A stretch of 64,000 bases of DNA from positions 32,001-96,000 of the forward strand of contig AE017150.2 in NCBI GenBank assembly GCA_000002445.1. Reading direction: 5' to 3'. Positions 1-64,000 of this stretch are shown here, piece after piece. The notes beneath the pieces are model-generated. The model was not told the origin of the DNA and made no database searches. It saw only the letters and a program-made list of their open reading frames with translations. Position numbers and translations under genes: made by a program. Positions within the stretch are counted from its first letter, which is position 1. Each line of letters opens with the position of its first letter. The DNA comes from Trypanosoma brucei (Eukaryota).

Positions 1-759
1 ATTGGGTCTCTCCTCAATCTCTGCATCTACATCCGCAGGTTCAGGACTTACATCCACCTCCGCTTCGGTCCAAATCCGCTGTGGTTTTCCATCGAATATC
101 TTCATTCCAAATGGCTCTTCATCATAACCCGACATCACATAACTCCATTTTGCATTATAAATGGAATCATAAGCGCCTTCAACTTCAACAGCACCATCAG
201 CTGTTTGGGCAGCTCGTTTCCTTGCTTCTTTGGCAATGCGCAGTGCCCTGTCCAACTTTGTCGCTGCCACGGGACCAACAAATTCCCTTATTTGCGCTGT
301 TGCATTTTCTTCCCATTGGTGAATGTCTTCAATCCTATTACGAGGCAGATAAATAACTGCCCTCAGTAATTGAAACTCATCAAGCCCCCGTACCCTTCCT
401 AGAAGCCTGGCATTCACAATATAATCCTCCGGGCTCTGAACAAAAATGGGCATCCTAACATTTTCTGCTTCAGCCACCGCAAAAGTCCCGCCAACGAACT
501 CCTGAATAAAGTCGTTCACTGTCATTTTACGCAAACCCGCATAGCGTTGCAGCAACACATCCCTCACCTTACTATTCATCGTCCATGTTAGTCCCCCTTC
601 AGTTCTCTGCCGTATTTGTGGAGGCTGAGCAGCAGCAGCAGCAGGAGGCGGCGGTACATTTTCATCCCGTGGCCTCCTCACTGCTGCTCCAAAATTACCT
701 GCCACTTGTTGGTTTGCATTATTTCTTCGTCGACCCCCACCTCTTCGACGTCTTGACAT
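1..759 (-). CDS. RHS-like P-loop NTPase, 5' portion only (ATG at 757-759; 253 codons in-frame to window edge; gene continues beyond position 1). Mosaic of C-like (600-759), A-like (~180-420) and B-like (1-180) segments.
   Basis: I translated the minus strand from the ATG at 757-759 and found no stop down to position 1. The start reads MSRRRRGGG...RRPRDENVPPPP...QIRQRTEGG. DNA 600-759 is near-identical to 26166-26340 (type C N-terminus). DNA 180-365 is near-identical to 5700-5880 (type A). DNA 1-180 is ~88% identical to 15963-16145 (type B). Confidence 0.7.
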   Translation of the reverse strand, partial: MSRRRRGGGRRRNNANQQVAGNFGAAVRRPRDENVPPPPAAAAAQPPQIRQRTEGGLTWTMNSKVRDVLLQRYAGLRKMTVNDFIQEFVGGTFAVAEAENVRMPIFVQSPEDYIVNARLLGRVRGLDEFQLLRAVIYLPRNRIEDIHQWEENATAQIREFVGPVAATKLDRALRIAKEARKRAAQTADGAVEVEGAYDSIYNAKWSYVMSGYDEEPFGMKIFDGKPQRIWTEAEVDVSPEPADVDAEIEERPN

Positions 760-2945
760 AACTCTTTTAATATTATTAACTTAACTTCCTTTCCTTTCCT
801 TTTTTCTCTGAAATTATAAATAACTGAAGTAAAGTAACATATGAGGAAAAAAAAATAGCGTGTGCACAGTGTAACATAATATCAAATGTAATAGAGCAAG
901 ATAATGTTTATTCACTATCATTTGTATAATATGATATCATAGCGCATTTGGTATTGAGAGGAACAATTTCAAAATATAGCAGCTGTAAATAAATTATTTC
1001 CCTTGCTTCATCATTATGTGCTAAATATAATTAATTTCCTGTATCATTCTTTCTAAACCATATATAATACGGAAAAAAAAATATTACTGCCTCATATACC
1101 TGCATAAGCACTTCGTATATATAATCAATATTTAAAGAGAGTCAAATTCTATCAATTAAAATCAAGTAAAACAAAAAACAAAAAATTTATGGATATTAAT
1201 GAAGCGAAGAAATAGAGTATCGGCACAACACATAGGGATATATACACACATGAATACGCACTACACAACTGTTCCACTGGAGTTTCCTCACTTCTGTCAA
1301 TACGTAATATTCACTTGCATTGAATAAACTCATTGAAATATAAATCACTTATCCCCTCCCCCGTGTATTCACTTACTTCCAAAGAAGAATATTAAATAAT
1401 GTCTGTAGGACAGGTAAAAAAGAAACTGATACTCTATTTTGCATCAGATAACCAAAAGGTATTTCTGTTTACTTTGATTATAAACAAAAACATCATTTTG
1501 CTCTCAGTAGAAATAAAATTTAATTACTTGCCTACTCACTGTTCACAACCATCAACAACTAATTCAGCCCCACAAATTCACATGAATCTGATGTGCCATC
1601 GTTGTTGGATTCATTCACACACCTTTTATGATGGTGATTATACAACATATTGTAAATAATTGAAATAAAATTAATACAATTAATTGAGGAAACCGTAAAA
1701 GATTATCATAACATATCTTTTATTTTCCCTCCTTTCATTTACACAAATTAAATATGTAATGATACAATTCCCTTTCAGTGTGTGTCCTCACTTATTGTAT
1801 CATCATTGTAAGTTTCCTATTGCTCATATACACAAAGCTATTGGAATAACAAAAAATAAAACAACACATCTAAACAACTTGAAATAATATATAACAAATA
1901 AAGGTAAAAAAGAGAATGAGCGTGAACTGACAGATAATAAAATGAAACACGTCTCGCACTTCCCTTATAAATATTCAATAGTTGGCGGATTACAAATAAA
2001 AACAATTACATAATATAGAAAAGAAGAGATATAATTACATTATACACCTGCATGTGGATATGTAACAGCGAGTCATAGTAGAAATAAATTGGCTAAACAC
2101 AATAGTTATGGAAGATAACATAATTCAAAATATTAAAAATATTATTCTATCAACATTCCCTTCCTTCTCCATTAAGTTTTCAAATGGTTTCAAATAATAA
2201 TTCACATAATCTCATACATATGTTATGATGGGTTTTGCATGCAGTACAATTTAAAGGAAGTGTAGCTCATATAACATTTTCAAAAATAGGTATTGAATGA
2301 CTGTTTGCTACCATCAATTACATTTCCAATGCCTAATTACACTTTTATATGCATGAAGGAAGTTACTGATCATAACTTTGACATGCTCGAGAATCCATAA
2401 CACAAAGCGACAGCTGCATGCAATTAAAAATAAAAATATAAATAACATCCGAATTCATTTACTGACAGATGAGTGCAAGTCATTCACCCAAACTTCATAG
2501 CTGCAAATATAAACTCGCTGCTGCCAATAGGAAATAATCCCGCATAAATATTGAGTATCTGAAAATGATAGCAACGGGTTTCCATTATTGAAATATATAC
2601 ATAAACTACATGAGGTATATGAAGCCATATTGGTAAAGTGTCACTACGCATGTTGCAATTTACTATCAAAAGTGTCTGCCTTATTTTATTTCTTGTGTTA
2701 CTTTAACTCATGAGTATTATTCATTATTCTTTACAATACAACTGTAAGTCATTTTGCATTTTTTTATATTTTCTTATTCTCTCATACTGGAAGTATTCCA
2801 CATATGAGATTCCTCAATATCGTTCACAAAATAAAAATAATTTTATTTACTTCTGCATTCAGTTTCTCGTGTAGCAGTGTGTACACTAATCATCCATAAA
2901 GTTTTTAATTTGCCAAATACATCATTACGAAACTATTTTCATACA
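760..2945. repeat. Spacer module U, copy 1. This ~2.1-2.2 kb AT-rich module is found 5' of the A/C-type genes.
   Basis: It aligns by eye along its whole length with 6255-8335, 26341-28525, 31769-33915 and 37223-39303. Confidence 0.8.
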
Positions 2946-3797
2946 CAAACACAAACACATACAAATAAACAACCAAACATTTTTAAATGTTGTTGTGAAA
3001 CGAAAATTGAATCACGGAAAATTGTGGGGCGCACACGTAATGGGCACCATGAATGCCTCTTTGGATATTCCTCTATGGATTTTCACCAGCATCATCAACT
3101 TACTTTTTGTGTAAAAAAATAATAGAAACAAGACAGAACAGAAAAAAGAAATAAAGGTACAAATGCATTAATAAACCCAACTCCTCAGCAGGAAATCAAG
3201 AACAGGAAGCCACGAAAAGCGTATGGCACATATGATTTTCACCTCTCAGTTACTTAAGGTGGATCGCATGATTTACCCACCTTCTAAGAACACACCCTCC
3301 GAGAGGCCCGATTAAAAGAAAAAAAAACGCTATGACGGTTGAAAAGACGTTTTTCATAAACCTTCACTTTATACGTGAGGATGCATGAATAAACAATGAT
3401 AACGATGAGAATGCTAACGGAAACAATGACGAACCGTGAGGATCCTAGAAAAAAAAATAAAATAAAATCATCACGTACCTTCGCAGTAGGGAAACTTAAT
3501 AAATAACAAAATATAAATATTCCCTACACAGAGGTATAGGGAGTGTTCGTCAACTTCGTAATGCTAATCAAAAAGCCTTCAAATGTATCGATCATTCGTG
3601 TAGTCAATCAAATAAGAAGTAACATGTACTACACGCACAAAAGCACACTTATAAAGCCTACAAACCCACTTGCCCCCTTTTAGAGAATACCACTCTCTAG
3701 TCAGTGATAGGAGAGGTGATATTAAAAGTATTCCCTTTATAATTATTTCTGACTCATCAATTCGTTGCAACATAACATAACATGCAAAGATGTTGCA
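2946..3797. repeat. Module D_A, copy 1 (~850 bp 3' flank of A-type genes).
   Basis: Shared with 28526-29398, 33916-34765 and 58776-59627. Confidence 0.8.
3256..3283. other. Perfect 7-bp inverted repeat (aaggtgg ... ccacctt) with a 14-nt loop, ~520 nt 3' of the A-type stop codon. Conserved in all four D_A copies.
   Basis: aaggtggatcgcatgatttacccacctt read directly from the sequence. The same string occurs in D_A copies 2-4 near 28857, 34225 and 59105. Confidence 0.5.
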
Positions 3798-6167
3798 TCA
3801 GGCAGCGGGGCCACCAGCAATAGCGTTTGGTTCATCCTGGGTGATCTCCTTAACAATATTCCCTTCCATCTTCACTTGAAACTGGTTGATTCTATTCCAC
3901 AACTCTGTAGTATAATCGCCTCTGCCCCCAACTGGTTCGCACTTCTGCCTCTCCTCGATTGGCTTGCTGTCACTGTACTGTATGTAAATCAGTTCCCATT
4001 TCAAGTTTCTTGCGAGCTCATCCCATTCACCAAACAATTTTTTCATTGCCTTGATAAACTTATCTACCTTCGCTCGTGTCGTGTGATGCGTTGGTGCCAC
4101 TGTCGCCTGGAGCAGAACAATTGTTGTTGCGGTGATCGCCCTTCCTTCTCTATCAACAGCTGGCTCAGTTACAAAGAAAAAGGCGTCCACAACGGGGAAA
4201 TTTCCCTGTACAGGTCGGTAGAAGCACCCGACCTCAATGTCTTGGCCTGTCGTTTCGGGGTTAAACTGACGAAGTGAAGTTGGAACACGTCCCACGGCAT
4301 TACCACTTGCCAGAACGGATACATTTGAATCCATTTCTTCTCCAACGCGAGGGAGATACCGCAGGTGCGTCACAATCGTCTGCACAACATTTCCCATCGT
4401 GAAGGCATATACGCCCACATTTTCAAATTCATCAGCGGCCCGCTCTTCTTTCCCACGAAAAACCTTTCGAAGGTAATTGTCTCGCATACATGCTGTGTTC
4501 GCCCACACTCTCAATTTCTGCTCAATATCAATGGAAACAGCTCTGTTTCTGCATTCTTCTCCATTCTCAGTTACAACCCGGACCAACTTAGCTAACATGT
4601 AAGTAGTCCCGTCCTGGCGCCATTGAACTCGACTATTCAGCACCTTCATGTAGTGACTATCATCGCCTCTACTGATTTCTGCCAGTGCCTCATTTATTTC
4701 TCTAACGCGGCCCTTGTAGCGTTTTTCACCTTCCAGTACTTGGCGGGCCAGTGGGCCCACCTTCTTAATCCATCCCAATGTTTTCTGCCATTCATTCTCA
4801 AGGTTTATGATGTGAGCTTCGGTGATTTTACTTTCCTCCAACTTCGACAGCCGCCTCCACGCAACCGCAGCCTTCAGTTCCACCTCTTCATAGCAATTGA
4901 TGCAAAGGAACTCGCAACCCCGTGGTTCCTTCCAGTCTTTGTAGTTATTTGGATCTGGAGATGTCAACACAATTACGGGCCACGCTCCCGGCAAGTCTGC
5001 GGGTATGGGTTGGTGCCTGTCTTTCCAAAAGTCGTATATAATGTAACCAAGAACTTTTTCAACAACGAAGGCCTCAACAGCATCCAATCCATCTTTTTCT
5101 TTTTCATAGAATACAACCTTTCCCGGATGATCGTTTGTCGCCCTGAAGAAAATATATGCCCTACCCTTCACAAAATAAGCGATATTCCGCAACAGCTCCG
5201 AATCGTAATGCAGCAACCTTTGAAGCAGAAACGAGCCAACACCAAATGATTTCCCAATACCTGGAGTGCCAACGAGGACGCAAGGAATCTGTTTTTTATT
5301 CACGCCTGGCCCTAACCACAAATCCAGCCTGTGCTTCACGAGATACCACACTCTCATTACCTCTCGACGAATGTACACATCCCCGTCAAACACGTAGTCT
5401 CCTGGTTCTTCCGCTTCCTCTTGAATTGCATGTTCCGGAATGCTGAAAGAGTTATACGGCCAACCCTCCTGCGAGGTGAGCACAGCAATCTCTAAATTAC
5501 CGTGACGAGGCAGTGGGTCGCACAAGTCATAAGGCGTGTGACTGACATTCACCTCCTCTTCTGTCCACAACTCGGGCTCGCCGTCACTATTACCCACCAC
5601 CTTCATGCCAAGAGGTAAATCATTGTGACCCGACTCCACATAACCCCATGTCGCATTGTATATGGATTCATATACTCCTTTCAGTTCGACACCATCAGCT
5701 GTTTGGTGAGCTCGTTCCCTTGCTTCTTTGGCAATGCGCAGTGCACTGTCCAACTTTGTCGCTGCCACGGGACCAACAAATTCCCTTATTTGCGCTGTTG
5801 CATTTTCTTCCCATTGGTGAATGTCTTCAATCCTATTACGAGGCAGATAAATAACTGCCCTCAGTAATTGAAACTCATCAAGCCGCTGTATCCTTCCTAG
5901 AAACCCGGCATTCACAATATAATCCTCCGGGCTCTGAACAAAGACACCCACTGACACATTAGAAGTGCCGAGGGTTTCACCGAAGTGATGATTCAAAAGG
6001 TCATGCAATTTCATATCCCTCAAACCCGCAAAGCGTTGAAGCAATACATCTTCAATAGAACTATTCATCGTCCATGTTGGTCCCTCTTCATCCCCGCGCA
6101 GTCTCTTGAGAAAACGCCTTGCCGCATGTAAGCCATCAGTATAGAAACGCCGCATTGAATTCCACAT
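3798..6167 (-). CDS. RHS-like P-loop NTPase, subfamily A, copy A1 (789 aa from ATG of MWNSMRRF). The ORF-track extension to 6254 begins at a GTG and runs through the polypyrimidine tract.
   Basis: The ORF is 2.4 kb. Walker A GTPGIGKS is at ~5244-5273 and Walker-B-like LGYIIYDF at ~5022-5050. It is near-identical to copies at 29399..31768 and 34766..37135. A polyY+AG tract lies immediately 5' of the ATG on the gene strand. Confidence 0.8.
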   Translation of the reverse strand: MWNSMRRFYTDGLHAARRFLKRLRGDEEGPTWTMNSSIEDVLLQRFAGLRDMKLHDLLNHHFGETLGTSNVSVGVFVQSPEDYIVNAGFLGRIQRLDEFQLLRAVIYLPRNRIEDIHQWEENATAQIREFVGPVAATKLDSALRIAKEARERAHQTADGVELKGVYESIYNATWGYVESGHNDLPLGMKVVGNSDGEPELWTEEEVNVSHTPYDLCDPLPRHGNLEIAVLTSQEGWPYNSFSIPEHAIQEEAEEPGDYVFDGDVYIRREVMRVWYLVKHRLDLWLGPGVNKKQIPCVLVGTPGIGKSFGVGSFLLQRLLHYDSELLRNIAYFVKGRAYIFFRATNDHPGKVVFYEKEKDGLDAVEAFVVEKVLGYIIYDFWKDRHQPIPADLPGAWPVIVLTSPDPNNYKDWKEPRGCEFLCINCYEEVELKAAVAWRRLSKLEESKITEAHIINLENEWQKTLGWIKKVGPLARQVLEGEKRYKGRVREINEALAEISRGDDSHYMKVLNSRVQWRQDGTTYMLAKLVRVVTENGEECRNRAVSIDIEQKLRVWANTACMRDNYLRKVFRGKEERAADEFENVGVYAFTMGNVVQTIVTHLRYLPRVGEEMDSNVSVLASGNAVGRVPTSLRQFNPETTGQDIEVGCFYRPVQGNFPVVDAFFFVTEPAVDREGRAITATTIVLLQATVAPTHHTTRAKVDKFIKAMKKLFGEWDELARNLKWELIYIQYSDSKPIEERQKCEPVGGRGDYTTELWNRINQFQVKMEGNIVKEITQDEPNAIAGGPAA

Positions 6168-6199
6168 TGCTAATGCCCTATTGTCTCGTTGTCTAGCAA

Positions 6200-6236
6200 C
6201 TGCAAAATTAAAGTAACGTATGAGGAAAATAATAGT
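6200..6236 (-). promoter_or_regulatory. Putative trans-splice acceptor signal for A1: a polypyrimidine tract followed by AG (gene strand tattattttcctcatacgttactttaattttgcag), ~35 nt 5' of the ATG.
   Basis: Reverse complement of 6200-6236. The same tract precedes A2 and A3. This is the pattern used for spliced-leader addition in trypanosomatids. Confidence 0.4.
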
Positions 6237-6254
6237 GTGTAAATAATGTAACAC

Positions 6255-8335
6255 AATATCAAATGTAATAGAGCAAGATAATGTTTATTCACTATAGTTT
6301 GTATAATATGATATCATAATGTATTTGGTATTGAGAGGAACAATTTCAAAATATAGCAGCTGTAAATAAATATTTCCCTTGCTTCATCATCATGTTCTAA
6401 AAATAATTAATTTCCTGCATCATTCTTTCTAAACCATATATAATATGGAAACAAAAAATATTACTGCCTCATATACATGCATCAACACTACGTATATATA
6501 ATCAATATTTAAAGAGAGTCAAATTCTATCAATTAAAATCAAGTAAAACAAAAAACAAAAAAATTTATGGATATTAATGAAGCGAAGAAAAAGAGTATCG
6601 GCACAACACATAGATATATACACACATGAATACACACCACACAATTGCTTCTTTATTTATCCTCCCCATTTTTACAATTCATAATATTCACTTGCATTGA
6701 ATAAACTCATTGAAAATATAAATCACCTATCCCCTCCCCCGTGTATTCACTTACTTCCAAAGGAGAATATTAAATAATGTCTGTAGGACAGGTAAAAAAA
6801 AAAAACTGATAGTCTTTTTGCATCAGATAACCAGAGAGTATTTCTGTTTACTTTCATAATAAACAAAAACATTCTTTCACCTTCAGTTAAAATAAAATTG
6901 ATTTACTTGCCTCCTTACTGTTCACAACCATCAACAACTAATTCAGCCCCACATATTCACATGTATTTTATGTGCCATCGTTGTTTGATTTATTCACACA
7001 TCTTCCATGATGGTGATGATACAACATATGAAAAATTATTGAAATACAATTAATACAATTATTTGAGGAACCCATGAAAGACTATCATAACATATCTTTT
7101 ATTTTCCCTCCTTTCATTTACAAAAATTAAATATGTAATGAGACAATTCCCTTTCAGTACGTGTCCACACTTATTGTATCATCATTGTAAGTTTCCTATT
7201 GCTCACATACACAGAGCTATTGGAACAACAAAAACATAAAACAACACATCTAAACAACTTGATAAAATATATAATAAATAAATAAAGGTAATAAAGAGAA
7301 TGAGCGTGAACAGACAGATAATAAAATGAAACACGTCTCGTACTTTCCTTATAAATATTCAATAGTTGGCGGATTACAAATAAAAACAATTACACATTAT
7401 AGAAAGGAAAGGATATAATTACATTATACACCTGCATGTGGATATGTAACAGTGAGTCATAGTAGAAATAAATTGTCTAAACACAATAGTTATGGAAGAT
7501 AAAATAATTCAAAATATCAATAATATTATTCTATCAACATTCCCTTCCTTCTCCATTAAGTTTTCAATGGATTTAAATAATAATTCACATAATCCCATAC
7601 ATATGTTATGACGGGTATTGCATGCAGTACAATTTAAAGGAAGTGAAACTCATATAACATTTTCAAAAAAAAAAGGCATTGAATGGTTGTTTGCTACCAT
7701 CAATTACATTTCCAATGCCTAATTACACTTTTGTATGCATGAAGGAAGTTACTGATGATAACTTTGACATGCTCGAGAATCCATAACACAAAGCGACTGC
7801 TGCATGCAATAAAAAATAAAAATATAAATAACATCCGAATTCATTTACTGACAGATGAGTGCAATTCATTCATCCAAACTTCATAGCTGTAAACATAAAC
7901 TCGTTGCTGCCAATAGGAAATAATCCCGCATAAATATTGAGTATCTGAAAATGATAGCAACGGGTTTCCATTTTTGAAATATATGCATAAACTACATGAG
8001 GTATATGAAGCCATATTGGTAAAGTGTCACTACACATGTTGCAATTTACTATCAGAAGTGTCTGCCTTATTTTATTTCTTGTGTTACTGTAACTCATGAG
8101 TATTATTCATTATTCTTTACAATACAACTGTAAGTCATTTTGCATTTTTTTATATTTCCTTATTCTCTCATACTGGAAGTATTCCACATATGAGATTCCT
8201 CAATATCGTTCACAAATAAAAATAATTTTATTTACTTCTGCATTCAGTTTCTTGTGCAGCAGTGTGTGTACTAATCATCCATAAAGTTTTTAATTTGCCA
8301 AATACATCATTACGAAACTATTTTCATACACATGC
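6255..8335. repeat. Spacer module U, copy 2.
   Basis: Same sequence blocks in the same order as the other U copies (e.g. agagtcaaattctatcaattaaaatcaagtaaaac, atgtctgtaggacaggtaaaaaa, catccgaattcatttactgacagatgagtgc). Confidence 0.8.
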
Positions 8336-9084
8336 ACAAACAAACCGTTGGGACAATATCTTTGAGGAATTTCCTTCACTATATTTGCAGTTCAGTAGTA
8401 ATTAAAATACACTTTTTGTATAATTCAACACATGGTGGAATTGCAAAGAAATGTGATGGTACTTATAATCAATAAGTTCCCAATTTTCCTCACATGGTCT
8501 CTTTTCATGCCTTTCCACACATATATAATTCACAGAGAATTACTGCAATATCCTTCATATGCTTTCAGGATTCCATATGTCACAATACAAATAATATACA
8601 TTTACACATATATATAATTTGGACAGCATATTGCTTAACATATAAATTATCACAAACCTATGATATTACACTCCTCCTAAGAATAATAGAATCAAATCAT
8701 TTCTATTTTGCATCATTACATGAAGCTTTGGAAAAGAAAAAAAAAGAATCAAACAAAAGGTAATGTAAAGAACACAGTTTCATAATACAGATTATAACTT
8801 GTTTGTGAATTTCAGATGCAAACACAAAATGTTCAAACAGTAAAACAGTAAAGGATAGTACTGGTGATGTAAGCACAAATTAATCAAAAATAGAAACATA
8901 AATAAAATTGAAACTTATAAAAACACAAATATATATGATACAAATATTTACCACATATTATAATTCGCCACCCTCACACTTGAATTAGAAAGAGTACATA
9001 ACACACATATGTGGTAAAACTAATACAACTCGAGTATACGTATGTGCCATCTTCATAACATAATCATTCTAATATTTACTCAGT

Positions 9085-9114
9085 ATGTGTGTCTGTGTGT
9101 GTGTCTGTGTGTGT
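9085..9114. repeat. TG-rich microsatellite (gtgtgtgtctgtgtgtgtgtctgtgtgtgt) inside the L module. It recurs in other L copies and is length-variable.
   Basis: Read directly from the sequence. Counterparts are at ~40053-40082, ~18771-18796 (TATG/TG) and ~49805-49820 (shorter). Confidence 0.85.
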
Positions 9115-11229
9115 AGAAATGATGAAATGTAATTGTAACAAATCAGGCACAACACAAACAAAATATATGAATTATATTATTCTCTAAAAAGTAGAAGAAT
9201 AAAAATCAAGAAATATTACGCAGCTTTTCTCACAAGTAATTTTGTTTCTGTATATAACACGACAGCTGACAACATTAAACTCTCAATTCCATAATATCTG
9301 ACACCTGAAGTGATAATTAGCAGCGGATGCCTTTAACAAAAAACAACAGAAATAACAACATCAAAGCATGTTTTGAAAGCTTAAATAAACTTCCTCATGG
9401 ATAAACCATTTGTACGAAGTTTGAGTGCCAAGTTGGAGGAACAAAGAAAAAATAAAAAAAGAAGAATTAAATGGTAAAACAATTGCGTGTGATATAACTA
9501 AAGGATTTGTTAGGCACTACACTCATTAAACTCCAGTTTCATAAAAATACTGCAAGGCATAATATTTACTGCTTTACCGGTTATGTGCCTCCAGCAAGCA
9601 ATAATAAATACTTCGAGTATTATTCAATTTCTGATGCTATGAAGTGTGTAATAAATTAGTGCGGGAGCAAAATATTCAAATGTTGGTGTTCACTTCAAAT
9701 TATAACCTCTGCACTATGAATGTCTCTCGATGTTTATAATTTGAGAGAGCAAAAGTGACGGCGCTATTACTTATTTCTTCCAGTTCATGAATACATACAC
9801 ATATTTATACATATATAATCAGAGGTGACACGCAAAAGCGTTTAAACATCAGGCATGAACATCTTTCCATTCAAAGTAAGACGATACAATAAGGTAAGTT
9901 TAGGATGAAGTGAAGGTATCATAATGTTAATATCTTCCTTCAAGCGGAGGATTCAATTCAAATAGGCGTACTTCACAAACAATAGTAAAATAACTGAGAA
10001 AACTTATATCACTTAATCGTTATTTCCTTCAATTCTTATTTTGAATCGCTCTGTACCGTCACACCTTCAATAAAGTATATAGTGACGCATTTCATACATC
10101 CTCCCTAAGCCATCTCTCATAGTCATTAGCTCTCAACAGCAATAATAACAAATAATGAATAGTTTAGTTCTTACCTTCCCTTTTTTACTACCCACAAGAA
10201 AGATATACGAAATAATTATCATACTGAATAAACAGTAGGCGTTCCTCATTATCCTACACAAAATATGAATTGAAACGATAATTTACTAACGGAGCGGAAG
10301 TGTCTGAAAGCGTCTTTAACTCGTCTCCTGTGCGGGGCGAAGAGGGTTGTGTTGTGTGGGCTTTCTAAAAATTTCACTCTCTTGCAGACAGCTGTGTAAA
10401 TAAACGGGGAGTACAGGTGTGTTTAGAGAAAGATAACCGTACAAAATAATACTCTGCACTCCTATGACCAAAACAACCATTCATAATGCAGGCTTTCAAA
10501 ATACACGATATCATCTCAACAAATTGTAATTTTTTTTTGCATAATGTCCTCCAGAAGACAGAACAACAGATGACACAGTTAAATAACACATGACAAACAA
10601 GGAATATAACCGCACATCCTCAGCAGTAAATGTTTCAGTTTCTCCTTTAAAAAAAAAAAAGAAAAATAAAACAGTTTCACACGTGTGGTCCAAAAGCTGC
10701 ATCAGCCAATACAATATCTTGACAGCTTGTCACGCAGTCTTGCCTCAAGAAGAAAATAAATCATTCATCTCTGCTTTCCTTAGTTGATAAATGAGATCCC
10801 ATGCTGTGTTAACTCCCGTCTCCATTCAAAAAGTTGACTCAACGTTATGACGAGGCAGTGACCAAAAACAATCCAAATGCAATTCTAAATTTCTTCATAT
10901 TACGTTTTCAGTTTTATTACACATTTCCCCAACCATTCCAAGTACTAACAGGAATAATTTGGTTCTATAATAATGCATGTGTTTTCTACAGCTCTTTCAT
11001 TTTGTTATGATCCGCACAAAAATTATATATGTGGTTGTTGATTCGTCCTGTCAATCAAAGTAACAATCATAATAATTAATTTTCCCCTTTTCTTCATTTT
11101 TTCTATTAGCACATGTGCACCTTGGTGAGATCACTTTCACTCATTTGCACTGATTGGTCAACACTATTTAGTTCGTTATTCAACACACTCCCTTACATGT
11201 CCTCCTCTCACCATTTATAACCCACACGA

Positions 11230-13814: not shown

Positions 13815-14166
13815 TATTTCTGTCTTTCTCTGTGCCCCTTAAGATTACGATGTGGCTTAACTCCAGTTACGCGTTAGCCGATAAAATACTACTTTTGCTA
13901 TTCCTTAGTCGTCTTCATTTCCACTTCCCTTCCCTCACCTCCGGCACTCAAGTGAATTATCACGTCCCTTTCCTTGCAGCAGCTGCGGAAGCTCATTACT
14001 GGTGGACAAACAACACACTTGGAATGGCGCAACGGGGCACTTCAAGTTGTGATCATAAACCAAACCAGGTACAAAAACGAACCCGCTCCTCCTAATGGTT
14101 GGTTCCCTCCTCTTTAAGCATTTGTCACTCTTAACAGCAACGCCGTGCACTGCTAAAAAAAAACAA

Positions 14167-37135: not shown

Positions 37136-37222
37136 TGCTAATGCCCTATTGTCTCGTTGTCTAGCAACTGCAAAATTAAAGTAACGTATGAGGAAAATAA
37201 TAGTGTGTGAACAGTGTAACAT

Positions 37223-48291: not shown

Positions 48292-49055
48292 TAATTCATA
48301 TAATCTCATACATATGTTATGACGGGTATTGCATGCAGTACCATATAAAGGAAGTGTAACTCATATAACATTTTCAAAAAAAGATATTGAATGGTTGTTT
48401 GCTACCATCAATTACATTTCCAATGCCTGATTACACTTTTATATGCATGAAGGAAGTTACTGATCATAACTTTGACATGCTCGAGAATCCATAACACAAA
48501 GCGACAGCTGCATGCAATTAAAAATAAAACATAAAAACAACATCCGAATTCATTTACTGACAGATGAGTGCGAGTTATTCACCCAAACTTCATAGCTGCA
48601 AACATAAACTCGCCGTTGCCAAAAGGAAATAATCCCGCATAAATATTGAGTATCTGAAAATGATAGCAACGGGTTTCCATTTTTGAAATATATGCATAAA
48701 CTACATGAGGTATATGAAGCCGTATTGGTAAAGTGTCACTACGCATGTTGCAATTTACTATCAGAAGTGTCTTCCTTATTTTATTTCTTTTGTTACTGTA
48801 ACTCATGAGCATCGTTCATTATTCTTTACAATACAACTGTAAGTCATTTTGCATTTTTACATATTTCCTTATTCCCTCATACTGGAAGTATTCCACATAT
48901 AATATTCCTCAATATCGTTCACAAAATAAAAATAATTTCATTTTCTTCTGCATTCAGTTGCTCGTGTAGCAGTGTGCACACTAATCATCCATAAAGTTTT
49001 TAATTTGCCAAATACATCATTACGAAACTATTTTCCACAAATAAACAAACAAACA
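48292..49055. repeat. Partial U module (distal part only).
   Basis: Same as 17306-18055. Confidence 0.7.
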
Positions 49056-54880: not shown

Positions 54881-57463
54881 TTACGCGTCTTCACCTCCTT
54901 CCACGTCGTCCATTGCTACGTCACCTCGCCCCTCCACAACCTCTTCACGAGCGCGCCGCCTTCCCGCCAGTCCCATCAATGCTGGTGCATCTCGCATGCC
55001 AGATTCTCGGCGATATGCCTGAATTAATTCCGCTTGCATCGTTTCCTTGAGTGTCACTTGGAATTGGTCGATGGATTCCCAAAATGTTTGCGGTCCCAGA
55101 GGACCTCCGTCCTCACCTCTATCTCTATCGGGGGGTCCTCCGCAAAGTTGCCTGTGGGTTATCGTGCCACCGTTAACCGAATTAATGTATATCATTTCCC
55201 AAGCCATGTTACCCGAAAACGTGTTCCAGTCGGAAAAATAACTTGCTATGTTTTCTCGGAACTTCTGCACCTTATCCGTAGTGGTGGGGTGCCTCTCCGA
55301 CTTGGTTACTTGTAAAAGCACAGCTATATTTGGAGTGGTCGGTGGCGCTGTTCCGTCACGGTTTCTCCTGAGCCGCCCCTCAACGAAAAAAAAGCCATCC
55401 ACCACGGGTTCATTGCCTGTGGCAGGGAGGTAGAGAACCATGTGTTCACAGCGTTCAATTGGTCGCTGTTGGGCCGCAGGTAAGGCCTTCTGCCCAATGA
55501 GTCTCAACTGCTGAGGAGCCATGTCGTTCAGTATGCTTCGACGGTCAGCTATTTCTCTGCCTCGTCGCAGGTATTTCAAGTTGTTTGCGATAACTTTAAA
55601 AACTCGAGGGAAAAGAAGCGAAAGCAACGCAAGCCTTTCAAAAGCGTTGGCCCCGACACTCTCGTCTGACATTATAATCTCCTTTGACGTCATCTCCACA
55701 ATAAGAATGCCAAATAATGTGCAAATCAACATATTCCAAATGTTGACAGAAAGCGATCTGCAACGATATGATTCGACATTGACAGTCCCAGAGCTTACCC
55801 GCACTATCTTCACCAATTTGTGCGTTACCTTATCATTTTGCCAGCCCTTAGATTTACTAATAATCTTATCATATTTCTTTCCGTTATCGCTATCGAGCTG
55901 CCTAGCTTCTTTACGCACACTTTCCAGTCGTTCGTCATAGTCAGGGGCTGAGAAAACAAAACGAGGCAGTGGACCAACCATGTCAATGCGCTCTTCCACA
56001 ATTTTCCACTCGCTTTCAAGCTCCTCCTTTAACTGCTGCCTCGTTTTGTCGCGCGGCACCTCCTCCGAAAGCACACACAGCTTTTTCCATGCCACAAATG
56101 CCTTCATGTCACGCACATCATCGCAGTTTATAATAATTCGGCGGCCTCCCGTGTCCTTTGCCCACTCCTCGTAATGTGCCGTATCCGGGGAAGTGAGAAC
56201 AGTTATACCCCAACTCAAATGGCACAGCTCATCAGGCGGTGTAAGTAAGCGCTTACCGATGTCAACAATGATGTGCCCTTTTTTTTTCTTGGATACTAAC
56301 GCAGCTATTGCGTCAACGGCATCTTCCGGGACTTTATACCTCTCAACCCTCCCCTCTTCTCCGGGTTTCTTGTTATATATTAAGTAAGCGATTTTACCCA
56401 CGAAATATGCAACAACATCAAGCATTCCATCATTGAAGTGAAGCAATGAATGAAGCAAAAATGATCCAACTCCATACGACTTTCCAATACCAGGTGTACC
56501 AATAACAATATGTATCGGTGTTCTCCGAGCTGTCTTTTCCACCCACCATGTTTGCAGCCCTCGTTGGATTATATACCACACGCGCATAATTTCACGACGG
56601 ATGTATACATGTTTAAAATTGTTCTTGCGTATATTAACGTCCCTCGATGCAAACCTGTCGTATGGCCAACCCTTCTCCGAAGTGAGAACAAAAATCTCCA
56701 AACCATTGGGTCTCTCCGGCACTCGTGCATCAAGATTCGCAGGATCAGGAGTTATATCCACCTCCGCTTCGGTCCATATGCGCTGTGGTTTTCCATTAAA
56801 CACTTTCATTCCAAGTGGCTCTCTACGATAACCCGACATTACATAACTCCATTTCGCATCATAAATGGAATCATACACTCCTTTAATTTCGACAGCACTA
56901 GCAGCTGTTTGGGCAGCTCGTTCCAATGCTACATCGAGTGCATCATTCAACATGTTAGTGACAATAATCCAAAGCCGCCCTCCATCTCTCTGTCCACGAA
57001 TATTCACCTGTAACCCGGCCTTTACTACCTCATCTGCTTGTTGCCAGCGCTGAAGATTCAATATTCCCTCTCTGAACAACAGGGGGTAAGCAGTAGCAAA
57101 AACTTTGTACACTTGATACTCTGTTGTCGCGAATATTCGATTGAGCGCATTAACGTCATTAATATACTCTTCGCATCGTTGTACAAAGGCAAACATTGAT
57201 GCTCTCAGGAGACGTTGATCCAAGTCGATATCATCGAGTAAATTACGCCTCAAATAATCATTTACACTCACATTTTCAGGATGAGCCCGACCATTCAGCA
57301 AAACTGCTTCAATGCAGCTGAAAAGTCTCCATTGTGGTTGGTTATTATTCTCCACTCGTTGCTGGACTGCTGGAGGTTCCGCATCGTTACGCGCAGCCTC
57401 CTCACGCTCTCGTCTCCTTCCCTCAATGTCACCCCTTCCTTCAATAGGAACCTGTTGATTCAT
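54881..57463 (-). CDS. RHS-like P-loop NTPase, subfamily B, copy B3 (860 aa). It carries a ~55 nt substituted patch (RRNLLDDIDLDQRLLRASMFAFVQRCEE replaces RRNFGRRYNVNEENNVSMFVFVLEPEE).
   Basis: Full-length ORF. The patch at ~57180-57260 is a substitution block of near-equal length (length change 3 nt = one codon, reading frame preserved), not a frameshift. I checked by translating both versions. Confidence 0.8.
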   Translation of the reverse strand: MNQQVPIEGRGDIEGRRREREEAARNDAEPPAVQQRVENNNQPQWRLFSCIEAVLLNGRAHPENVSVNDYLRRNLLDDIDLDQRLLRASMFAFVQRCEEYINDVNALNRIFATTEYQVYKVFATAYPLLFREGILNLQRWQQADEVVKAGLQVNIRGQRDGGRLWIIVTNMLNDALDVALERAAQTAASAVEIKGVYDSIYDAKWSYVMSGYRREPLGMKVFNGKPQRIWTEAEVDITPDPANLDARVPERPNGLEIFVLTSEKGWPYDRFASRDVNIRKNNFKHVYIRREIMRVWYIIQRGLQTWWVEKTARRTPIHIVIGTPGIGKSYGVGSFLLHSLLHFNDGMLDVVAYFVGKIAYLIYNKKPGEEGRVERYKVPEDAVDAIAALVSKKKKGHIIVDIGKRLLTPPDELCHLSWGITVLTSPDTAHYEEWAKDTGGRRIIINCDDVRDMKAFVAWKKLCVLSEEVPRDKTRQQLKEELESEWKIVEERIDMVGPLPRFVFSAPDYDERLESVRKEARQLDSDNGKKYDKIISKSKGWQNDKVTHKLVKIVRVSSGTVNVESYRCRSLSVNIWNMLICTLFGILIVEMTSKEIIMSDESVGANAFERLALLSLLFPRVFKVIANNLKYLRRGREIADRRSILNDMAPQQLRLIGQKALPAAQQRPIERCEHMVLYLPATGNEPVVDGFFFVEGRLRRNRDGTAPPTTPNIAVLLQVTKSERHPTTTDKVQKFRENIASYFSDWNTFSGNMAWEMIYINSVNGGTITHRQLCGGPPDRDRGEDGGPLGPQTFWESIDQFQVTLKETMQAELIQAYRRESGMRDAPALMGLAGRRRAREEVVEGRGDVAMDDVEGGEDA

Positions 57464-58032
57464 TTCACTCTCCGAATAATAATCCTAACTGAGTGTGTTG
57501 TGTTATTTCCTTTCTTTGTAATATAAATTAAGAAAAGAATTAAGATGAGGGAATTTAAAATGGATACACTTATAAACCAAATCAAATATACAATTAATGA
57601 ATATTAGGAATTAATATGGCAGATGGAAACTATTTATTTAAATTAGGATTCAATACAAATCTTATCATGTGTTGGGGCGTCACGGCAACTTAAGCACAAA
57701 TAAGGTATGACAGTATGAATAAACATTTCTCTTGGGATGAAAAACTCAAACAACAATTCCCAGTTACTGCACACCATCATTTCAGAAAAAATATATATAC
57801 TTAGATATATTTATGTATGGAAAAGCAAAAAAAATAAATAAATGTGGCATTACCACGAAAAATGGGAAACAATAGTTTTAATGATAAATCATGCAAAACG
57901 TAGAAAACTCGGTTGCATACAGAAAAGTGCCTTACTTACCTTACAAAATTAAAAATATACCAAAAGTAAAAATAAATATAAAACATTATCTTCACAAATC
58001 AAACCAGACACGTATTAAGCAAGAGAAAATAA
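57464..58032. repeat. Module U_B, copy 3.
   Basis: Direct comparison. Confidence 0.8.
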
Positions 58033-58775
58033 TTCACATAATCTCATACATATGTTATGATGGGCATTGCATGCAGTACAATTTAAAGGAAGTGTAACTC
58101 ATATAACATTTTCAAAAAAAAAAGTAATGAATGGTTGTTTGCTACCATCAATTACATTTCCAATGCCTAATTACACTTTTATATGCATGAAGGAAGTTAC
58201 AGATGATAACTTTGACATGCTCGAGAATCCATAACACAAAGCGACAGCTGCATGCAAATAAAAAAATATAAATATAAATAACATCCGAATTCATTTACTG
58301 ACAGATGAGTGCAATTCATTCACCCAAACTTCATAGCTGTAAACATAAACTTGCTTCTGCCAAAAGGAAAAAATCCCGCATAAATATTGAGTATCTGAAA
58401 ATGATAGCAACGGGTTTCCATTTTTGAAATATATGCATAAACTACATGAGGTATATGAAGCCATATTGGTGAAGTGTCATTACGCATGTTGCAATTTACT
58501 ATCAGAAGTGTATGCCTTATTTTATTTCTTGTGTTACTGTAACTCATGAGTATCATTCATTATTCTTTACAATACAACTGTAAGTCATTTTGCATTTTTA
58601 CATATTTCCTTATTCTCTCATACTGGAAGTATTCCACATATGAGATTCCTCAATATCGTTCAAAAAATAAAAATAATTTTATTTACTTCTGCATTCAGTT
58701 TCTCGTGTAGCAGTGTGTACACTAATCATCCATAAAGTTTTTAATTTGCCAAATACATCATTACGAAACTATTTT
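58033..58775. repeat. Partial U module (distal part only), joined here to D_A rather than to L.
   Basis: Same as 17306-18055, then continues into D_A-type sequence. Confidence 0.7.
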
Positions 58776-59627
58776 CCACAAATAAACAAACAAATAAACA
58801 ACCAAACACTTTTAAATGTTGTTGTGAAACGAAAATTGAATCACGGAAAATTGTGGGGCGCACACGTAATGGGCACCATGAATGCCTCTTTGGATATTCC
58901 TCAATGGCTTTTCACCAGCATCATCAACTTACTTTTTGTGTAAAAAAAAACAAAAAAGAAAAAAAGAAAAAAGAAATTTAAAAAGAAAACAAAAAAGAAA
59001 TAAAGGTACAAATGCATTAATAAACCCAACTCCTCAGCAGGAAATCAAGAACAGGAAGCCACGAAAAGCGTATGGCACATATGATTTTCACCTCTCAGTT
59101 ACTTAAGGTGGATCGCATGATTTACCCACCTTCTAAAAACACACCCTCCGAGAGGCCCGATTAAAAGAAAAAAAAACGCTATGACGGTTGAAAAGACGTT
59201 TTTCATAAACCTTCACTTTATACGTGAGGATGCATGAATAAACAATGATAACGATGAGAATGCTAACGGAAACAATGACGAACCGTGAGGATCATAGAAA
59301 AAAAAACACATACTTTTACATTAAGGAAACTTAATAAATAACAAAATATAAATATTCCCTACACAGAGGTATAGGGAGTGTTCGTCAACTTCGTAATGCT
59401 AATCAAAAAGCCTTCAAATGTATCGATCATTCGTGCAGTCAATCAAATAAGAAGTAACATGTACTACACGCACAAAAGCACACTTATAAAGCCTACAAAC
59501 CCACTTGCCCCCTTTTAGAGAATACCACTCTCTAGTCAGTGATAGGAGAGGTGATATTAAAAGTATTCCCTTTATAATTATTTCTTGTTTTTCAATTCGT
59601 TGCAACATAACATGCAAAGGTGTTGCA
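58776..59627. repeat. Module D_A, copy 4 (3' of the chimeric pseudogene; contains an expanded purine-rich tract).
   Basis: Direct comparison. Confidence 0.8.
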
Positions 59628-62083
59628 TCAGGCAGCGGGGCCACCAGCAATAGCGTTTGGTTCATCCTGGGTGATCTCCTTAACAATATTCCCTTCCATC
59701 TTCACTTGAAACTGGCTGATTTTATTCCACAACTTTGTAGTATAATCGCCTCTGCCCCCAACTGGTTCGCACTTCTGCCTCACATCGATTGGCTTGCTGT
59801 CACTGTACTGTATGTAAATCAGCTCCCATTTCAAGTTTCTTGCGAGCTTATCCCATTCACCAAACAATTGTTTCATTGCCTTGATAAACTTATCTACCTT
59901 CTCTCGTGTCGTGTGATGCGTTGGTGCCACTGTCGGCTGGAGCAGAACAATTGTTGTTGCGGTGATCGCTCTTCCTTCTCTATCAACAGCTGGCTCAGTT
60001 ACAAAGAAAAAGGCGTCCACAACGGGGAAATTTCCCTGTACAGGTCGGTAAAGGCACCCAACCTTGATGTCTTGGCCTGTCGTTTCGGGGTAAATATGAC
60101 GAAGTGAAGTTGGAACACGTCCCACGGCATTACCACTTGCCAGAGCGGATACATTTGAATCCATTTCTTCTCCAACGCGAGGGAGATACCGCAGGTGCGT
60201 CACAATCGTCTGCACAACATTTCCCATCGTGAAGGCATATATGCCCACATTTTCAAATTCATCAGCGGCCTGCTCTTTTTTCCCACGAAAACCCTTTCGA
60301 AGGTAATTGTCTCGCATACATGCTGTGTCCGCCCACACTCTCAATTTCTGCTCAATATCAATGGAAACAGCTCTGTTTCTGCATTCTTCTCCATTCTCAG
60401 TTACAACCCGGACCAACTTAGCCAACCTGTATGTAGTCCCGTCCTCGCGCCATTGAACTCGACTATTCAGCACCTTCATGTAGTGTTCAGCATCGCCTCT
60501 ACTGATCTCCTCCAGTGCCCCATTTATTTCTCTAACGCGGCCCTTGTAGCGTTTTTCACCTTCCAGTACTTGGCGGGCCAGTGGGCCCACCTTCTTAATC
60601 CATCCCAATGTTTTCTGCCATTCATTCTCAAGGTTTATGATGTGAGCTTCGGTGATTTTACTTTCGTCCAACTTCGACAGCCGCCTTCACGCAACCGCAG
60701 CCTTCAGTTCCACCTCTTCATAGCAATTGATGCAAAAGCGCTCGCAAGCCCGTGGCCGCTTCCAGCGTCTGTAGTTATTTGGATCTGGAGATGTCAACAC
60801 AATTACGGGCCACGTTTCCGGCAATTTTGTCGGTATGGGTTCATCTCTCTCTTTCGCAAAGTCGTATATAATGTAACCAAGACCTTCTTCATCAGCCAAG
60901 TCATTGACAGCATCCAATCCATCTACTTCTTTTTCATAAAATACAACCTTTCTCGGATGATCATTTGTCGCCCTGAAGAAAATATATGCCCTACCCTTCA
61001 CAAAATAAGCGATATTCCGCAACAGCTCCGAATCGTAATGCAGCAACCTTTGGAGCAGAAACGAGCCAACACCAAATGATTTCCCAATACCTGGAGTGCC
61101 AACGAGGACGCAAGGTATTTGTTTTTTATTCACGCCTGGCCCTAACCACAAATCCAGCCTCTGCTTCACAAGATACCACACTCTCATTACCTCTCGACGA
61201 ATGTACACATCCCCGTCAAACACATGGACCTTTGGCTTTTCCTCACCCTCTTGAATTGCTCTTCGCGGAATGCGGAAACGATTATACGGCCAACCCTTCT
61301 GCGAGGTGAGCACAGCAATCTCTAAATTACCACGTCGAGGCAGTGGGTCGCACAAATCGTAAGGCGTGTGACTGACATTCACCTCCTCTTCTGTCCACAA
61401 CTCGGGCTCGCCGTCACTATTACCCACCACCTTCATGCCAAGAGGTAAGTCATTGTGACCCGACTCCACATAACCCCACGTCGCATTGTATATGGATTCA
61501 TATACTCCTTTCAGTTCGACACCATCAGCTCTTTGAGCAGCTCGCTTTTCCGCTTCCTTGAGTGCATTATTCAACATGTTAGTGACAATAATCCAAGTCT
61601 GCTCTCCATTTCTCAGTCCACGAATATTCACCTGTAACCTGGCCTTTACTTCCTCATTTGCTTGTTTCCAGCGCACGAGATTCAATATTCCCTCATTCTC
61701 ATAAAAACCATAGACGCTGACAAAACGTTTGTACACTTTATACGGTATTGTCGCGAATATTCGATTGAGCGCATTAACGTCATTAATATACTCTTCACAT
61801 CGTTGTAAACCCCAGATATTGATACATTATTTTCTTCGTTCACATTGTATCTTGTGCCAAAATTAAGCTTCAAAAAATCATTCAACATCACATTTTGAGG
61901 ATGTGGCAGACCATTCAGCAAAACTGCTTCAATGCAGCTGAAAAGTCTCCATTGTGGTTGGTTATTATTCTCCACTCGTTGCTGCACTGCTGGAGGTTCC
62001 GCATCGTTACGCGCAGCCTCCTCACGCTCTCGTCTCCTTCCCTCAATGTCACCCCTTCCTTCAATAGGAACCTGTTGATTCAT
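59628..62083 (-). pseudogene. Chimeric RHS-like pseudogene. The N-terminus is B-like and identical to B3 (61700-62083). The body is A-like from ~61550 downward. It has one in-frame nonsense (TGG to TGA at 60687-60689) and a small deletion/frameshift near 61740-61800.
   Basis: The ORF track splits it into 59628..60671, 60687..61736 and 61682..62083 in different frames. At 60687-60689 the DNA reads tca (TGA on the gene strand), whereas intact A copies read cca (TGG, W of AVAWRRLSK). Flank 62084-62479 is identical to the B3 upstream module. Confidence 0.75.
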
Positions 62084-62479
62084 TTCACTCTCCGAATAAT
62101 AATCCTAACTGAGTGTGTTGTGTTATTTCCTTTCTTTGTAATATAAATTAAGAAAAGAATTAAGATGAGGGAATTTAAAATGGATACACTTATAAACCAA
62201 ATCAAATATACAATTAATGAATATTAGGAATTAATATGGCAGATGGAAACTATTTATTTAAATTAGGATTCAATACAAATCTTATCATGTGTTGGGGCGT
62301 CACGGCAACTTAAGCACAAATAAGGTATGACAGTATTAATAAACATTTCTGTTGAGAGGAAAACTCAAACAACAATTCCCGGTTACTTCACACCATGATT
62401 TCAAAAACAATAATATACTTACACATATATTTATGTATTGAAAAGCAAAACAAATAAATAAATGTGGCATTGCCATGAA
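62084..62479. repeat. Module U_B, copy 4 (truncated; identical to copy 3 over its length).
   Basis: 62084-62479 equals 57464-57859 base for base by eye. Confidence 0.8.
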
Positions 62480-64000
62480 AAAAAAAACAGTTTCACACGT
62501 GTGGTCCAAAAGCTGCATCAGCCAATACAATATCTTGACAACTTGTCACGCAGTCTTGCCTCAAGAAGAAAATAAAACATTCATCACTTGTTTACTTAAT
62601 TGATAAATGAGATCCCATGCTGTGTTAACTCACGTCTCCATTCAAAAAGTTGACTCAACGTTGTGACGAGGCAGTGACAAAAAACAATCCAAATGCAATT
62701 CCAAATTTCTTCATATTACGTTTTCAGTTTTATTACACATTTCCCCAACCATTCCAAGTACTAACAGGAATAATTTGGTTCTATAATAATGCATGTGTTT
62801 TCTACAGCTCTTTCATTTTGTTATGATCCGCACAAAAATTATATATGTGGTTGTTGATTCGTCCTGTCAATCAAAGTAATATAATAATTAATTTTCCCCT
62901 TTTCTTCATTTTTTCTATTAGCACATGTGCACCTTGGTGAGATCACTTTCACTCATTTGCACTGATTGGTCAACACTATTTAGTTCGTTATTCAACACAC
63001 TCCCTTACATGTCCTCTTCTCACCATTTATAACCCACACGAGCAGCATCAAATATAAATTGTGAAGAGGTATGAGATCACAAGGAGCTCGCTCTCATTGA
63101 GAAGGTTGGATGCGTCATATATATATAATCATGTAATCCCTTTCCATTTCAACAATACGCAAACCTCAACTGCGGAATCGACTTTGAATGAGTTGACCTC
63201 GTCAGCATGAAACGGGGCCCGCCAAGTGGCATGAACATTAATCTTATCAGTAAACATGTGTTTGAGGTGTTGGTAATAAATGGGGTCAAATAAAACATAA
63301 GTGCGTATCATCTCCCCCGTTATGCCCGAGTGGAAAATATACATCATCTCCTTGAATATAATTGTATCCATGTTGTATCAATTCCTCATTCAGCTCTTCA
63401 TCCTTATCGGTACCCAAAGGCATTGCCATCGCCTAACTTTTCCGTGAATGCACTCACGCCTTTAAGCTAACGAGTTCCAGCAACTTTCCATCTGTCATAC
63501 GGCTCGGGAATCCATGAGAATTTATGATCATATCTGTGCAAATGCCTTTACTCATTGAAGGGCATGTTAACACACCATCAGTGATGAGATCCACTACTCC
63601 CTCCAGCCCGTGCCGTGAGGAAAACTTATTTCAGACCTCGGGACCGCGAACTTCTCTCGTAGCAACTTTAACTTTATTGTTATACATTCATCGATATATC
63701 CGAGTCACTGGAAGGTGAGAGATGACCACATTTGGTTCACAACAGCAGGCTGAGGGTATTTATTATATTCAAGAAAATTAGGTCTTGGTTCCTTGAAAGG
63801 CACGGGAGTTTATTTGTTTACCAAAATATCAAACTGACGAATAACCGCACCTTTACTACTGGCAATACCATCAATATTAAAGGCATTGTGTCTCGCAACA
63901 TTTCAATCTGTTGGAAGAATTATATCATACATACTCACCGTTGGGAAGTCTTTCCAGTTCCATCTCATGCTTACAAAAAACAACACGCCACCCATAGCCA
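62480..64000. repeat. Partial L module (internal part), entered from U_B through a poly-A tract.
   Basis: Matches L1 ~10670-12190. The junction is at ccatgaaaaaaaaaacagtttcacacgtgtgg. Confidence 0.7.
63042..64000 (-). pseudogene. Fourth, window-truncated copy of the same RNA polymerase subunit pseudogene (3' part only), in a partial L module.
   Basis: 63129..63371 matches 11317..11559 (VLFDPIYYQHLKHMFTDKINVHATWRAP). The sequence through 64000 tracks L1 positions ~11230-12190. Confidence 0.6.

Follow-up and report, generated by a model that had tools for sequence, protein, structure and literature searches.

The 64,000-nucleotide stretch of Trypanosoma brucei DNA examined in this study (contig AE017150.2 of assembly GCA_000002445.1, positions 32,001 to 96,000 of the forward strand; hereafter the window) contains seven long intact open reading frames (ORFs) according to the ORF list, all on the minus strand, measuring 2.37-2.58 kb and encoding 789-860 amino acids. 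Searching the window with the intact proteins (tblastn) located two extra copies, at 59631-62083 and 1-723. An initial annotation, made from the sequence alone, had counted seven intact minus-strand genes and two further copies of a family resembling the trypanosome retrotransposon hot spot (RHS) family, and both the count and the family assignment hold: an exact-sequence look-up identified the seven ORF proteins as the consecutive RefSeq entries XP_951478.1-XP_951484.1 of strain TREU927 (six of the seven exact at full ORF length), which are deposited RHS proteins of chromosome 2. The series of copies, every one of them on the minus strand, runs along the window as follows: the 5' part of an RHS gene, RHS2, RHS4, RHS1, RHS2, RHS2, RHS4, RHS4 and a chimeric RHS4/RHS2 pseudogene. 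This head-to-tail RHS cluster is already known: chromosome 2 of Trypanosoma brucei brucei TREU927, on which it lies, has been sequenced and annotated, the region with its genes and their family has been in the literature since 2002-2005, and functional work followed in 2019. It is very probable that the explanation developed below, in which the window is part of this TREU927 chromosome 2 RHS cluster, is correct as a whole, including its account of the growth, architecture, function and likely mechanism of the cluster and its proteins. The intact genes and the two incomplete copies are as follows.

1-759, minus strand: 5' part of a further RHS gene, with 253 codons, an in-frame ATG at 757-759 and tblastn matches from all three groups
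3798-6167, minus strand: RHS2 gene (c1), 789 amino acids, XP_951478.1; Pfam RHSP E = 7e-138; RHS2 primers exact
14167-16743, minus strand: RHS4 gene (c2), 858 amino acids, identical to XP_951479.1 / AAL14355.1; Pfam match; five RHS4 primers exact
23836-26340, minus strand: RHS1 gene (c3), 834 amino acids, identical to XP_951480.1 / AAL14352.1; Pfam match
29399-31768, minus strand: RHS2 gene (c4), 789 amino acids, identical to XP_951481.1; Pfam match; RHS2 primers match
34766-37222, minus strand: RHS2 gene (c5), 818-amino-acid form AAL14353.1; 789-amino-acid form at 34766-37135 equal to XP_951482.1; Pfam and primer matches
45151-47724, minus strand: RHS4 gene (c6), 857 amino acids, XP_951483.1; Pfam, identity and primer matches
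54881-57463, minus strand: RHS4 gene (c7), 860 amino acids, XP_951484.1; Pfam, identity and primer matches
59628-62083, minus strand: chimeric RHS pseudogene, delimited by sliding-window identity, a stop map, the tblastn split, reading frames and Pfam searches of its ORF pieces

The ORF of c1 reaches position 6254, in an 818-amino-acid form, solely by way of a GTG start. This form was rejected as an artefact, since the ORF tool applies the bacterial code; the real start is M30, which gives the 789 amino acids of XP_951478.1.

Membership of the RHS family is supported by every line of comparison. The Pfam check suggested with the initial annotation gave scores far above the curated cut-offs in each of the seven intact copies: RHSP (PF07999) at 217-460 bits against a cut-off of 25 (E values from 6e-64 to 7e-138) and RHS_N (PF20445), directly N-terminal of the P-loop domain, at 119-194 bits against 21, with DUF7578 also matching all seven. 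RHSP additionally matched both ORF pieces of the 59628-62083 pseudogene. Among 5.8 billion proteins searched, 69 homologs came up, every one from the genus Trypanosoma (T. brucei, T. vivax, T. congolense, T. cruzi and T. conorhini); best matches outside the kinetoplastids, which the initial annotation had named as evidence that would speak against its family call, did not occur. No solved structure had detectable sequence similarity to the RHS proteins. The term RHS-like as used for these genes denotes the trypanosome RHS family and not bacterial Rhs. A reading of the ORFs as a generic P-loop NTPase family, or as bacterial Rhs-type genes unrelated to trypanosome RHS, can appeal to nothing beyond a shared Walker A motif and a similar name; it is refuted by matches to RHS-specific Pfam models with E values down to 1e-138, by homologs confined to Trypanosoma and by the identity of the ORFs to deposited T. 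brucei proteins, while Pfam reported solely RHSP, RHS_N and DUF7578 in the ORFs and no bacterial Rhs or YD-repeat domain. The probability of such a reading is therefore negligible.

The motifs from which the family had first been recognized were largely found where expected. The Walker A motif GTPGIGKS[FY] occurs at amino acids 300-339 in all seven intact copies (eight sites at the DNA level), and an hhhhD motif, described beforehand as Walker-B-like and approximately 75 amino acids downstream, follows it after 73-80 amino acids in all seven. A VLTSP motif had also been attributed to each gene; [VI]LTSP is indeed present approximately 25 amino acids after hhhhD in six copies, but the RHS1 copy (23836-26340) has ALSSP. 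The layout of an RHS protein consists of N-terminal DUF7578 and RHS_N domains, a STAND/AAA+-like P-loop NTPase, a helical region and a conserved C-terminal alpha/beta domain. Conservation was scored on an alignment of 41 sequences, with RHS2 numbering, in which G300 and G303-S307 of the P-loop are invariant and D379 of hhhhD reaches 90% conservation or more. The C-terminal third contributes one invariant residue, P658, and a set likewise conserved at 90% or more: D661, F663, F664, V666, V684, Q687, T689, H694, W715, W724 and E725. The picture of a conserved centre flanked by subfamily-specific termini is accurate only roughly, as the three-way identity maxima lie at RHS2 amino acids 143-181 (0.55) and 300-339 (0.50) and the C-terminal third holds the highly conserved residues just listed. 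The supposedly variable C-terminal region (RHS2 amino acids 640-760, approximately 29490-29850 in c4) carries the signature PVVD[AG]FFFV ... LQxT ... H ... W.E.IY.Q in all copies.

The T. brucei RHS multigene family was reportedly described by Bringaud et al. in 2002 as comprising subfamilies RHS1-RHS7. Three subfamilies had been proposed for the window, and pairwise comparison agrees, with 95-99% identity within group A (c1, c4, c5), 85-87% within group B (c2, c6, c7), group C consisting of c3 alone, and 32-36% identity between groups. On the basis of protein identity, primer matches and a 90%-identity cluster, groups A, B and C, which the initial annotation had left to be named, are assigned to RHS2 (three copies), RHS4 (three copies) and RHS1 (one copy), respectively. 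Gene c5 is identical to AAL14353.1, named RHS2a, and the primers used for RNA interference (RNAi) and C-terminal tagging of RHS2 (Florini et al., PMC6393297) match c1, c4 and c5 exactly. Four of the five RHS4 primers (C-terminal tagging and forward RNAi) are exact in c2, c6 and c7, while the reverse RNAi primer is exact in c2 only; the RHS6 primers from the same work have no match anywhere in the window. Gene c3 shares a 90%-identity cluster with the chromosome 1 proteins CAD53027.1 and CAD53024.1, both named RHS1. In addition, the gene identifiers given in PMC6393297 (Tb927.2.280, Tb927.2.380 and Tb927.2.400 for RHS2, Tb927.2.340 for RHS4 and Tb927.2.370 for RHS1) follow an order that fits that of the window, which supports both the subfamily calls and the identity of the chromosome 2 cluster. 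The TREU927 chromosome 2 RHS cluster and the window are alike in having identical proteins, the same Pfam architecture and subfamilies RHS1, RHS2 and RHS4.

The two copies that the initial annotation had classed together as partial or pseudo are of different kinds. The copy at 59628-62083 is a pseudogene: it is as long as an intact gene, has no inserted element and carries one frameshift between 61817 and 61796 and one premature TGA at 60687-60689. Its first approximately 540 nucleotides are RHS4-like (69-100% identity to RHS4 genes versus 31-54% to RHS2), after which the sequence is RHS2-like (83-100%). Chimeras in the family are said to arise by recombination with a junction 5' of the P-loop (PMC7563717), and the pseudogene resembles the T. 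brucei RHS family in having formed by recombination 5' of the P-loop. The copy at 1-759, however, is a gene truncated by the start of the window and cannot be shown to be a pseudogene, the frame being open from the ATG down to position 1 with no stop. From one N-terminal segment to the next, the resemblance passes from RHS1 to RHS2 and on to RHS4; its best named match, an RHS3 protein, is only 68% identical, and the C-terminus that defines the subfamily falls outside the window. Naming this gene RHS5 from the order of gene identifiers (Tb927.2.240) was rejected, given that the best named N-terminal match is just 68% and to RHS3.

The description of the locus as a window-wide tandem array is correct in that the copies share one strand, but the array is made of same-strand modules with spacers and is not a simple tandem repeat: the spacers between RHS genes measure 2.2-8.0 kb, RHS-derived sequence makes up 32% of the window, and Tandem Repeats Finder reported nothing in it. 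Duplications were mapped by self-blastn of the window. The principal blocks, together with an RNA polymerase III remnant carried by some of them, are listed below.

827-20192 versus 31807-51218, no strand assigned: 19.4-kb segmental duplication, 96.2% identity by self-blastn
26426-33932 versus 31826-39313: example of the 5.4-kb RHS2 module
38547-49057 versus 48290-58798: 9.74-kb RHS4 module
11320-12942, minus strand: decayed relic of RPC2 (RNA polymerase III second-largest subunit), 3' of RHS4 gene c2; Pfam Rpb2_4 and Rpb2_6
approximately 42304-43926, minus strand: DNA-level copy of the RPC2 relic, from the duplications and the ORF list
approximately 52043-53667, minus strand: DNA-level copy of the RPC2 relic, on the same evidence
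approximately 63132-64000 (window end), minus strand: DNA-level copy of the RPC2 relic, on the same evidence

Each arm of the 19.4-kb duplication contains one RHS2 gene, one RHS4 gene and an RPC2 relic, and the 5.4-kb RHS2 and 9.74-kb RHS4 modules are nested within the arms. A 5' flank of approximately 2.1 kb is common to the RHS1, RHS2 and edge genes, and an element of approximately 770 bp is common to all 5' flanks. Within the RHS4 genes, identity among c2, c6 and c7 changes block by block: in nucleotides 151-300, c2 and c6 are 94% identical to each other but only 71% identical to c7; in nucleotides 751-900, c6 and c7 are 98% identical but 81% identical to c2; in nucleotides 1651-2250, c2 and c7 are 100% identical; and nucleotides 2251-2583 are 97-100% identical. 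A comparison of the RHS2 gene c4 (29399-31768) with the copies at 3798-6167 and 34766-37135 revealed one divergent block, nucleotides 601-1200, in one copy. These block-wise switches of identity produce a patchwork and indicate repeated gene conversion between members of the array. The window shows that segmental duplication of modules, each a gene with its flank, enlarged the cluster, and that gene conversion and unequal recombination keep reshuffling it.

PMC7563717, in summarising Bringaud 2002, places the site of RIME/ingi insertion just past the P-loop codons; such insertion is a property of the family as a whole, observed in its pseudogene members. A pattern search placed these codons at the following positions.

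5244-5270, minus strand: P-loop (Walker A) codons of c1
15757-15783, minus strand: equivalent P-loop codons
25300-25326, minus strand: equivalent P-loop codons
30845-30871, minus strand: equivalent P-loop codons
36212-36238, minus strand: equivalent P-loop codons
46738-46764, minus strand: equivalent P-loop codons
56474-56500, minus strand: equivalent P-loop codons
61074-61100, minus strand: equivalent P-loop codons

Uninterrupted RHS coding sequence follows the P-loop in all eight copies, as judged from the pattern search and translation of the next 30 codons, and no retroelement was found after it; this result covers the P-loop sites alone and does not exclude RIME, ingi, DIRE or SIDER elements in the spacers, for which no scan was made (no reference was available, and RIME is non-coding). 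Compared with the T. brucei RHS family, the window contains nothing different in kind, except that no copy in it carries the name-giving RIME/ingi insertion after the P-loop. The structure of the array bears on the possibility that the cluster matters mainly as DNA, whether as a recombination substrate, as a sink for RIME/ingi or as a source of small interfering RNAs (siRNAs) from pseudogenes, its coding capacity being incidental. The patchwork of gene conversion, the chimeric pseudogene and the large near-identical duplications would all be compatible with such a role, as would literature on RHS-pseudogene siRNAs and retroelement insertion (PMC7563717) and a 2026 preprint proposing that RHS arrays are recombination anchors. 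However, seven of the nine copies retain intact ORFs of 789-860 amino acids although they diverge by 4-15%, all eight hot spots in the window are empty, the single-strand layout provides no convergent pairs for double-stranded RNA inside the window, and the proteins are essential by RNAi (PMC6393297). A role primarily as DNA is consequently quite improbable.

The reading preferred here is that the cluster encodes working proteins of the RNA polymerase II (Pol II) machinery. RHS2, RHS4 and RHS6 are essential by RNAi, and their depletion lowers nascent RNA and blocks mRNA export (Florini et al., PMC6393297). In the same work, the chromatin immunoprecipitation sequencing profiles of these proteins track elongating Pol II, RHS4 was found in the Pol II complex, and RHS2 was found in association with ribosomes and translation factors. 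An RHS protein might accordingly be pictured as acting on Pol II chromatin, either as an assembly factor or as a nucleotide-dependent switch; the P-loop would serve as the putative nucleotide switch, and the C-terminal domain would contact nucleic acid. Two points weigh against this interpretation. The function rests wholly on the literature, as the sequence itself gives no sign of Pol II association, and the functional work of Florini et al. (PMC6393297) did not cover RHS1.

The C-terminal domain deserves separate consideration. The AlphaFold model of RHS2 has a mean pLDDT of 79, and the model of the C-terminal domain has a pLDDT of 88. Fold matches to this domain are weak and below significance, and they are headed by and enriched in PD-(D/E)xK nucleases (HamA, SfsA, N.BspD6I, AspBHI, MspJI, BsmI, FokI, EcoO109I, RecB and LmuA). 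The canonical D...(D/E)xK signature is absent from the domain, which instead has D661...Q687-x-T689...H694, where QxT replaces ExK and the lysine position is not conserved. The region could be a restriction endonuclease (REase)-fold domain with a D...QxT...H signature, an inactivated or re-purposed nuclease that provides the nucleic-acid contact of a Pol II elongation or export factor and has relatives outside the Trypanosoma RHS set, although we regard this model as a tentative one that is rather doubtful at present. If it were true, there would be divergent relatives with both the P-loop and the C-terminal core beyond the annotated Trypanosoma RHS proteins, of which P0176 would be an example. 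A profile of the C-terminal domain matched 109 proteins among 1.84 billion representatives; of the eight weakest matches, the four that are named are from Trypanosoma (three RHS and one hypothetical) and the other four are unnamed metagenomic proteins. These four (P0170, P0174, P0176 and P0177, from ENA and JGI) share an NFP.[VA]D...LQ.T...H core. P0176 has an identical GTPGIGKS Walker A motif and no Pfam RHSP match, and all four may represent divergent, RHS-like sequences of organisms that do not belong to the annotated Trypanosoma set.

A rival reading takes RHS proteins to be primarily conflict or defence modules of a Crinkler-RHS type. In such a module the NTPase would regulate an REase-fold nuclease directed against nucleic acids, those of retroelements among them, and the effects on transcription would follow only indirectly. 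As summarised in PMC5289972, Zhang et al. 2016 group RHS proteins with Crinkler effectors, the commonest C-terminus being an NTPase followed by a helix-turn-helix and an REase domain, and, as related in PMC7563717, earlier authors proposed a role in retroelement control. The nuclease-rich, if weak, matches of the C-terminal model and the conservation of at least 90% at D661, Q687, T689 and H694 point in the same direction. Against these stand the D...QxT...H signature in place of D...ExK, the absence of a Crinkler header domain among the Pfam matches, and the global Pol II defect that follows depletion of proteins present along all transcription units (PMC6393297). A defence role is therefore unlikely, and a function in Pol II transcription and mRNA export continues to be preferred.

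Comparison with other systems places the RHS proteins more precisely. The RHS proteins of T. cruzi (Bernardo et al. 2020, PMC7563717) have the same domains, are encoded by mosaic genes shaped by recombination and gene conversion, and are nuclear, but they share only approximately 30-32% identity with the RHS4 query and belong to a far larger family of ten groups. Crinkler (CRN, or CR) effectors of oomycetes and other eukaryotes, as far as they are treated in PMC5289972, resemble RHS in combining a P-loop NTPase, helices and an alpha/beta domain, for which REase folds are the best matches (below significance). In contrast to Crinklers, RHS proteins have no Crinkler or ubiquitin-like header (Pfam at E <= 0.01), with DUF7578 at the N-terminus instead; they are nuclear or cytoplasmic housekeeping factors and not secreted, and they have QxT in place of ExK. 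STAND/AAA+ NTPases, including plant NLRs, SAMD9, Avs3, ORC/Cdc6 and Clp/Hsp100, share the Walker A motif, the hhhhD Walker B-like strand and a helical domain after it, whereas RHS proteins have no Pfam match to NB-ARC, NACHT or AAA and no sensor or repeat domains. A Foldseek search of the full RHS2 model against the PDB returned NRC3, WRR4A, NRC2, ClpB, ORC/Cdc6, SAMD9 and Avs3, all of them weak matches (E values of 2e-4 to 1e-3, TM-score approximately 0.2).

With regard to the spacers, broken minus-strand ORFs 3' of each RHS4 gene match Rpb2 domains 4 and 6, spread over three frames; these were the only Rpb2 domains found by Pfam, domains 1-3 and 7 not being detectable in the relic. Among solved structures, the best matches are to RPC2 of RNA polymerase III (3.9e-10 and 4.8e-9), whereas the best non-RPC2 chain reaches 5.7e-07 and the majority of Pol II RPB2 chains lie near 1e-5. 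To judge from these similarities, the relic is a decayed, frameshifted RPC2; it was co-amplified with the 9.7-kb RHS4 module. No mention of an RPC2 relic beside RHS genes was found in the searchable literature. Apart from the RPC2 pieces, no spacer ORF had a Pfam match above the curated cut-off, and the window contains no Rfam family and no tRNA detectable by ARAGORN. The family, gene count, strand and subfamily structure had been correctly inferred from motifs alone; what the present study adds is the relic co-amplified with RHS4, the patchwork left by gene conversion, and the conserved C-terminal residues with their weak REase-like fold matches. These additions concern mainly the annotation of trypanosome subtelomeres and studies of the mechanism of RHS proteins.

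Other features of the spacers were also observed. The stretch at approximately 20192-23836, between the RHS4 gene c2 and the RHS1 gene in window order, is the sole long one without a duplicate elsewhere in the window. Its G+C content is 0.37-0.42, its AT skew at 20-22 kb is negative, which is unusual, and a six-frame search of 19000-23836 gave no Pfam match. On the plus strand, runs of A12-A13 occur at 6794-6805, 10649-10660, 37762-37773, 41633-41644 and 51371-51383, three of the five where duplication blocks meet, immediately 3' of the RPC2 relic; they may be retroposon tails or module junctions.

Base composition distinguishes the genes (G+C 0.42-0.48) from the spacers (approximately 0.30), and GC skew is negative over the entire window, which fits a single coding strand. 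Trypanosome genes on one strand are typically read as a polycistronic Pol II unit. As all copies lie on the minus strand, this general biology leads us to infer that the RHS cluster is transcribed as one such unit. Opposite the RHS2 genes, the plus strand contains long antisense ORFs of 170-208 amino acids (at 3765-4277, 4623-5249 and the corresponding places in the paralogs). These ORFs are conserved from one copy to the next, and the simplest explanation would be that they are a by-product of the conserved sense strand.

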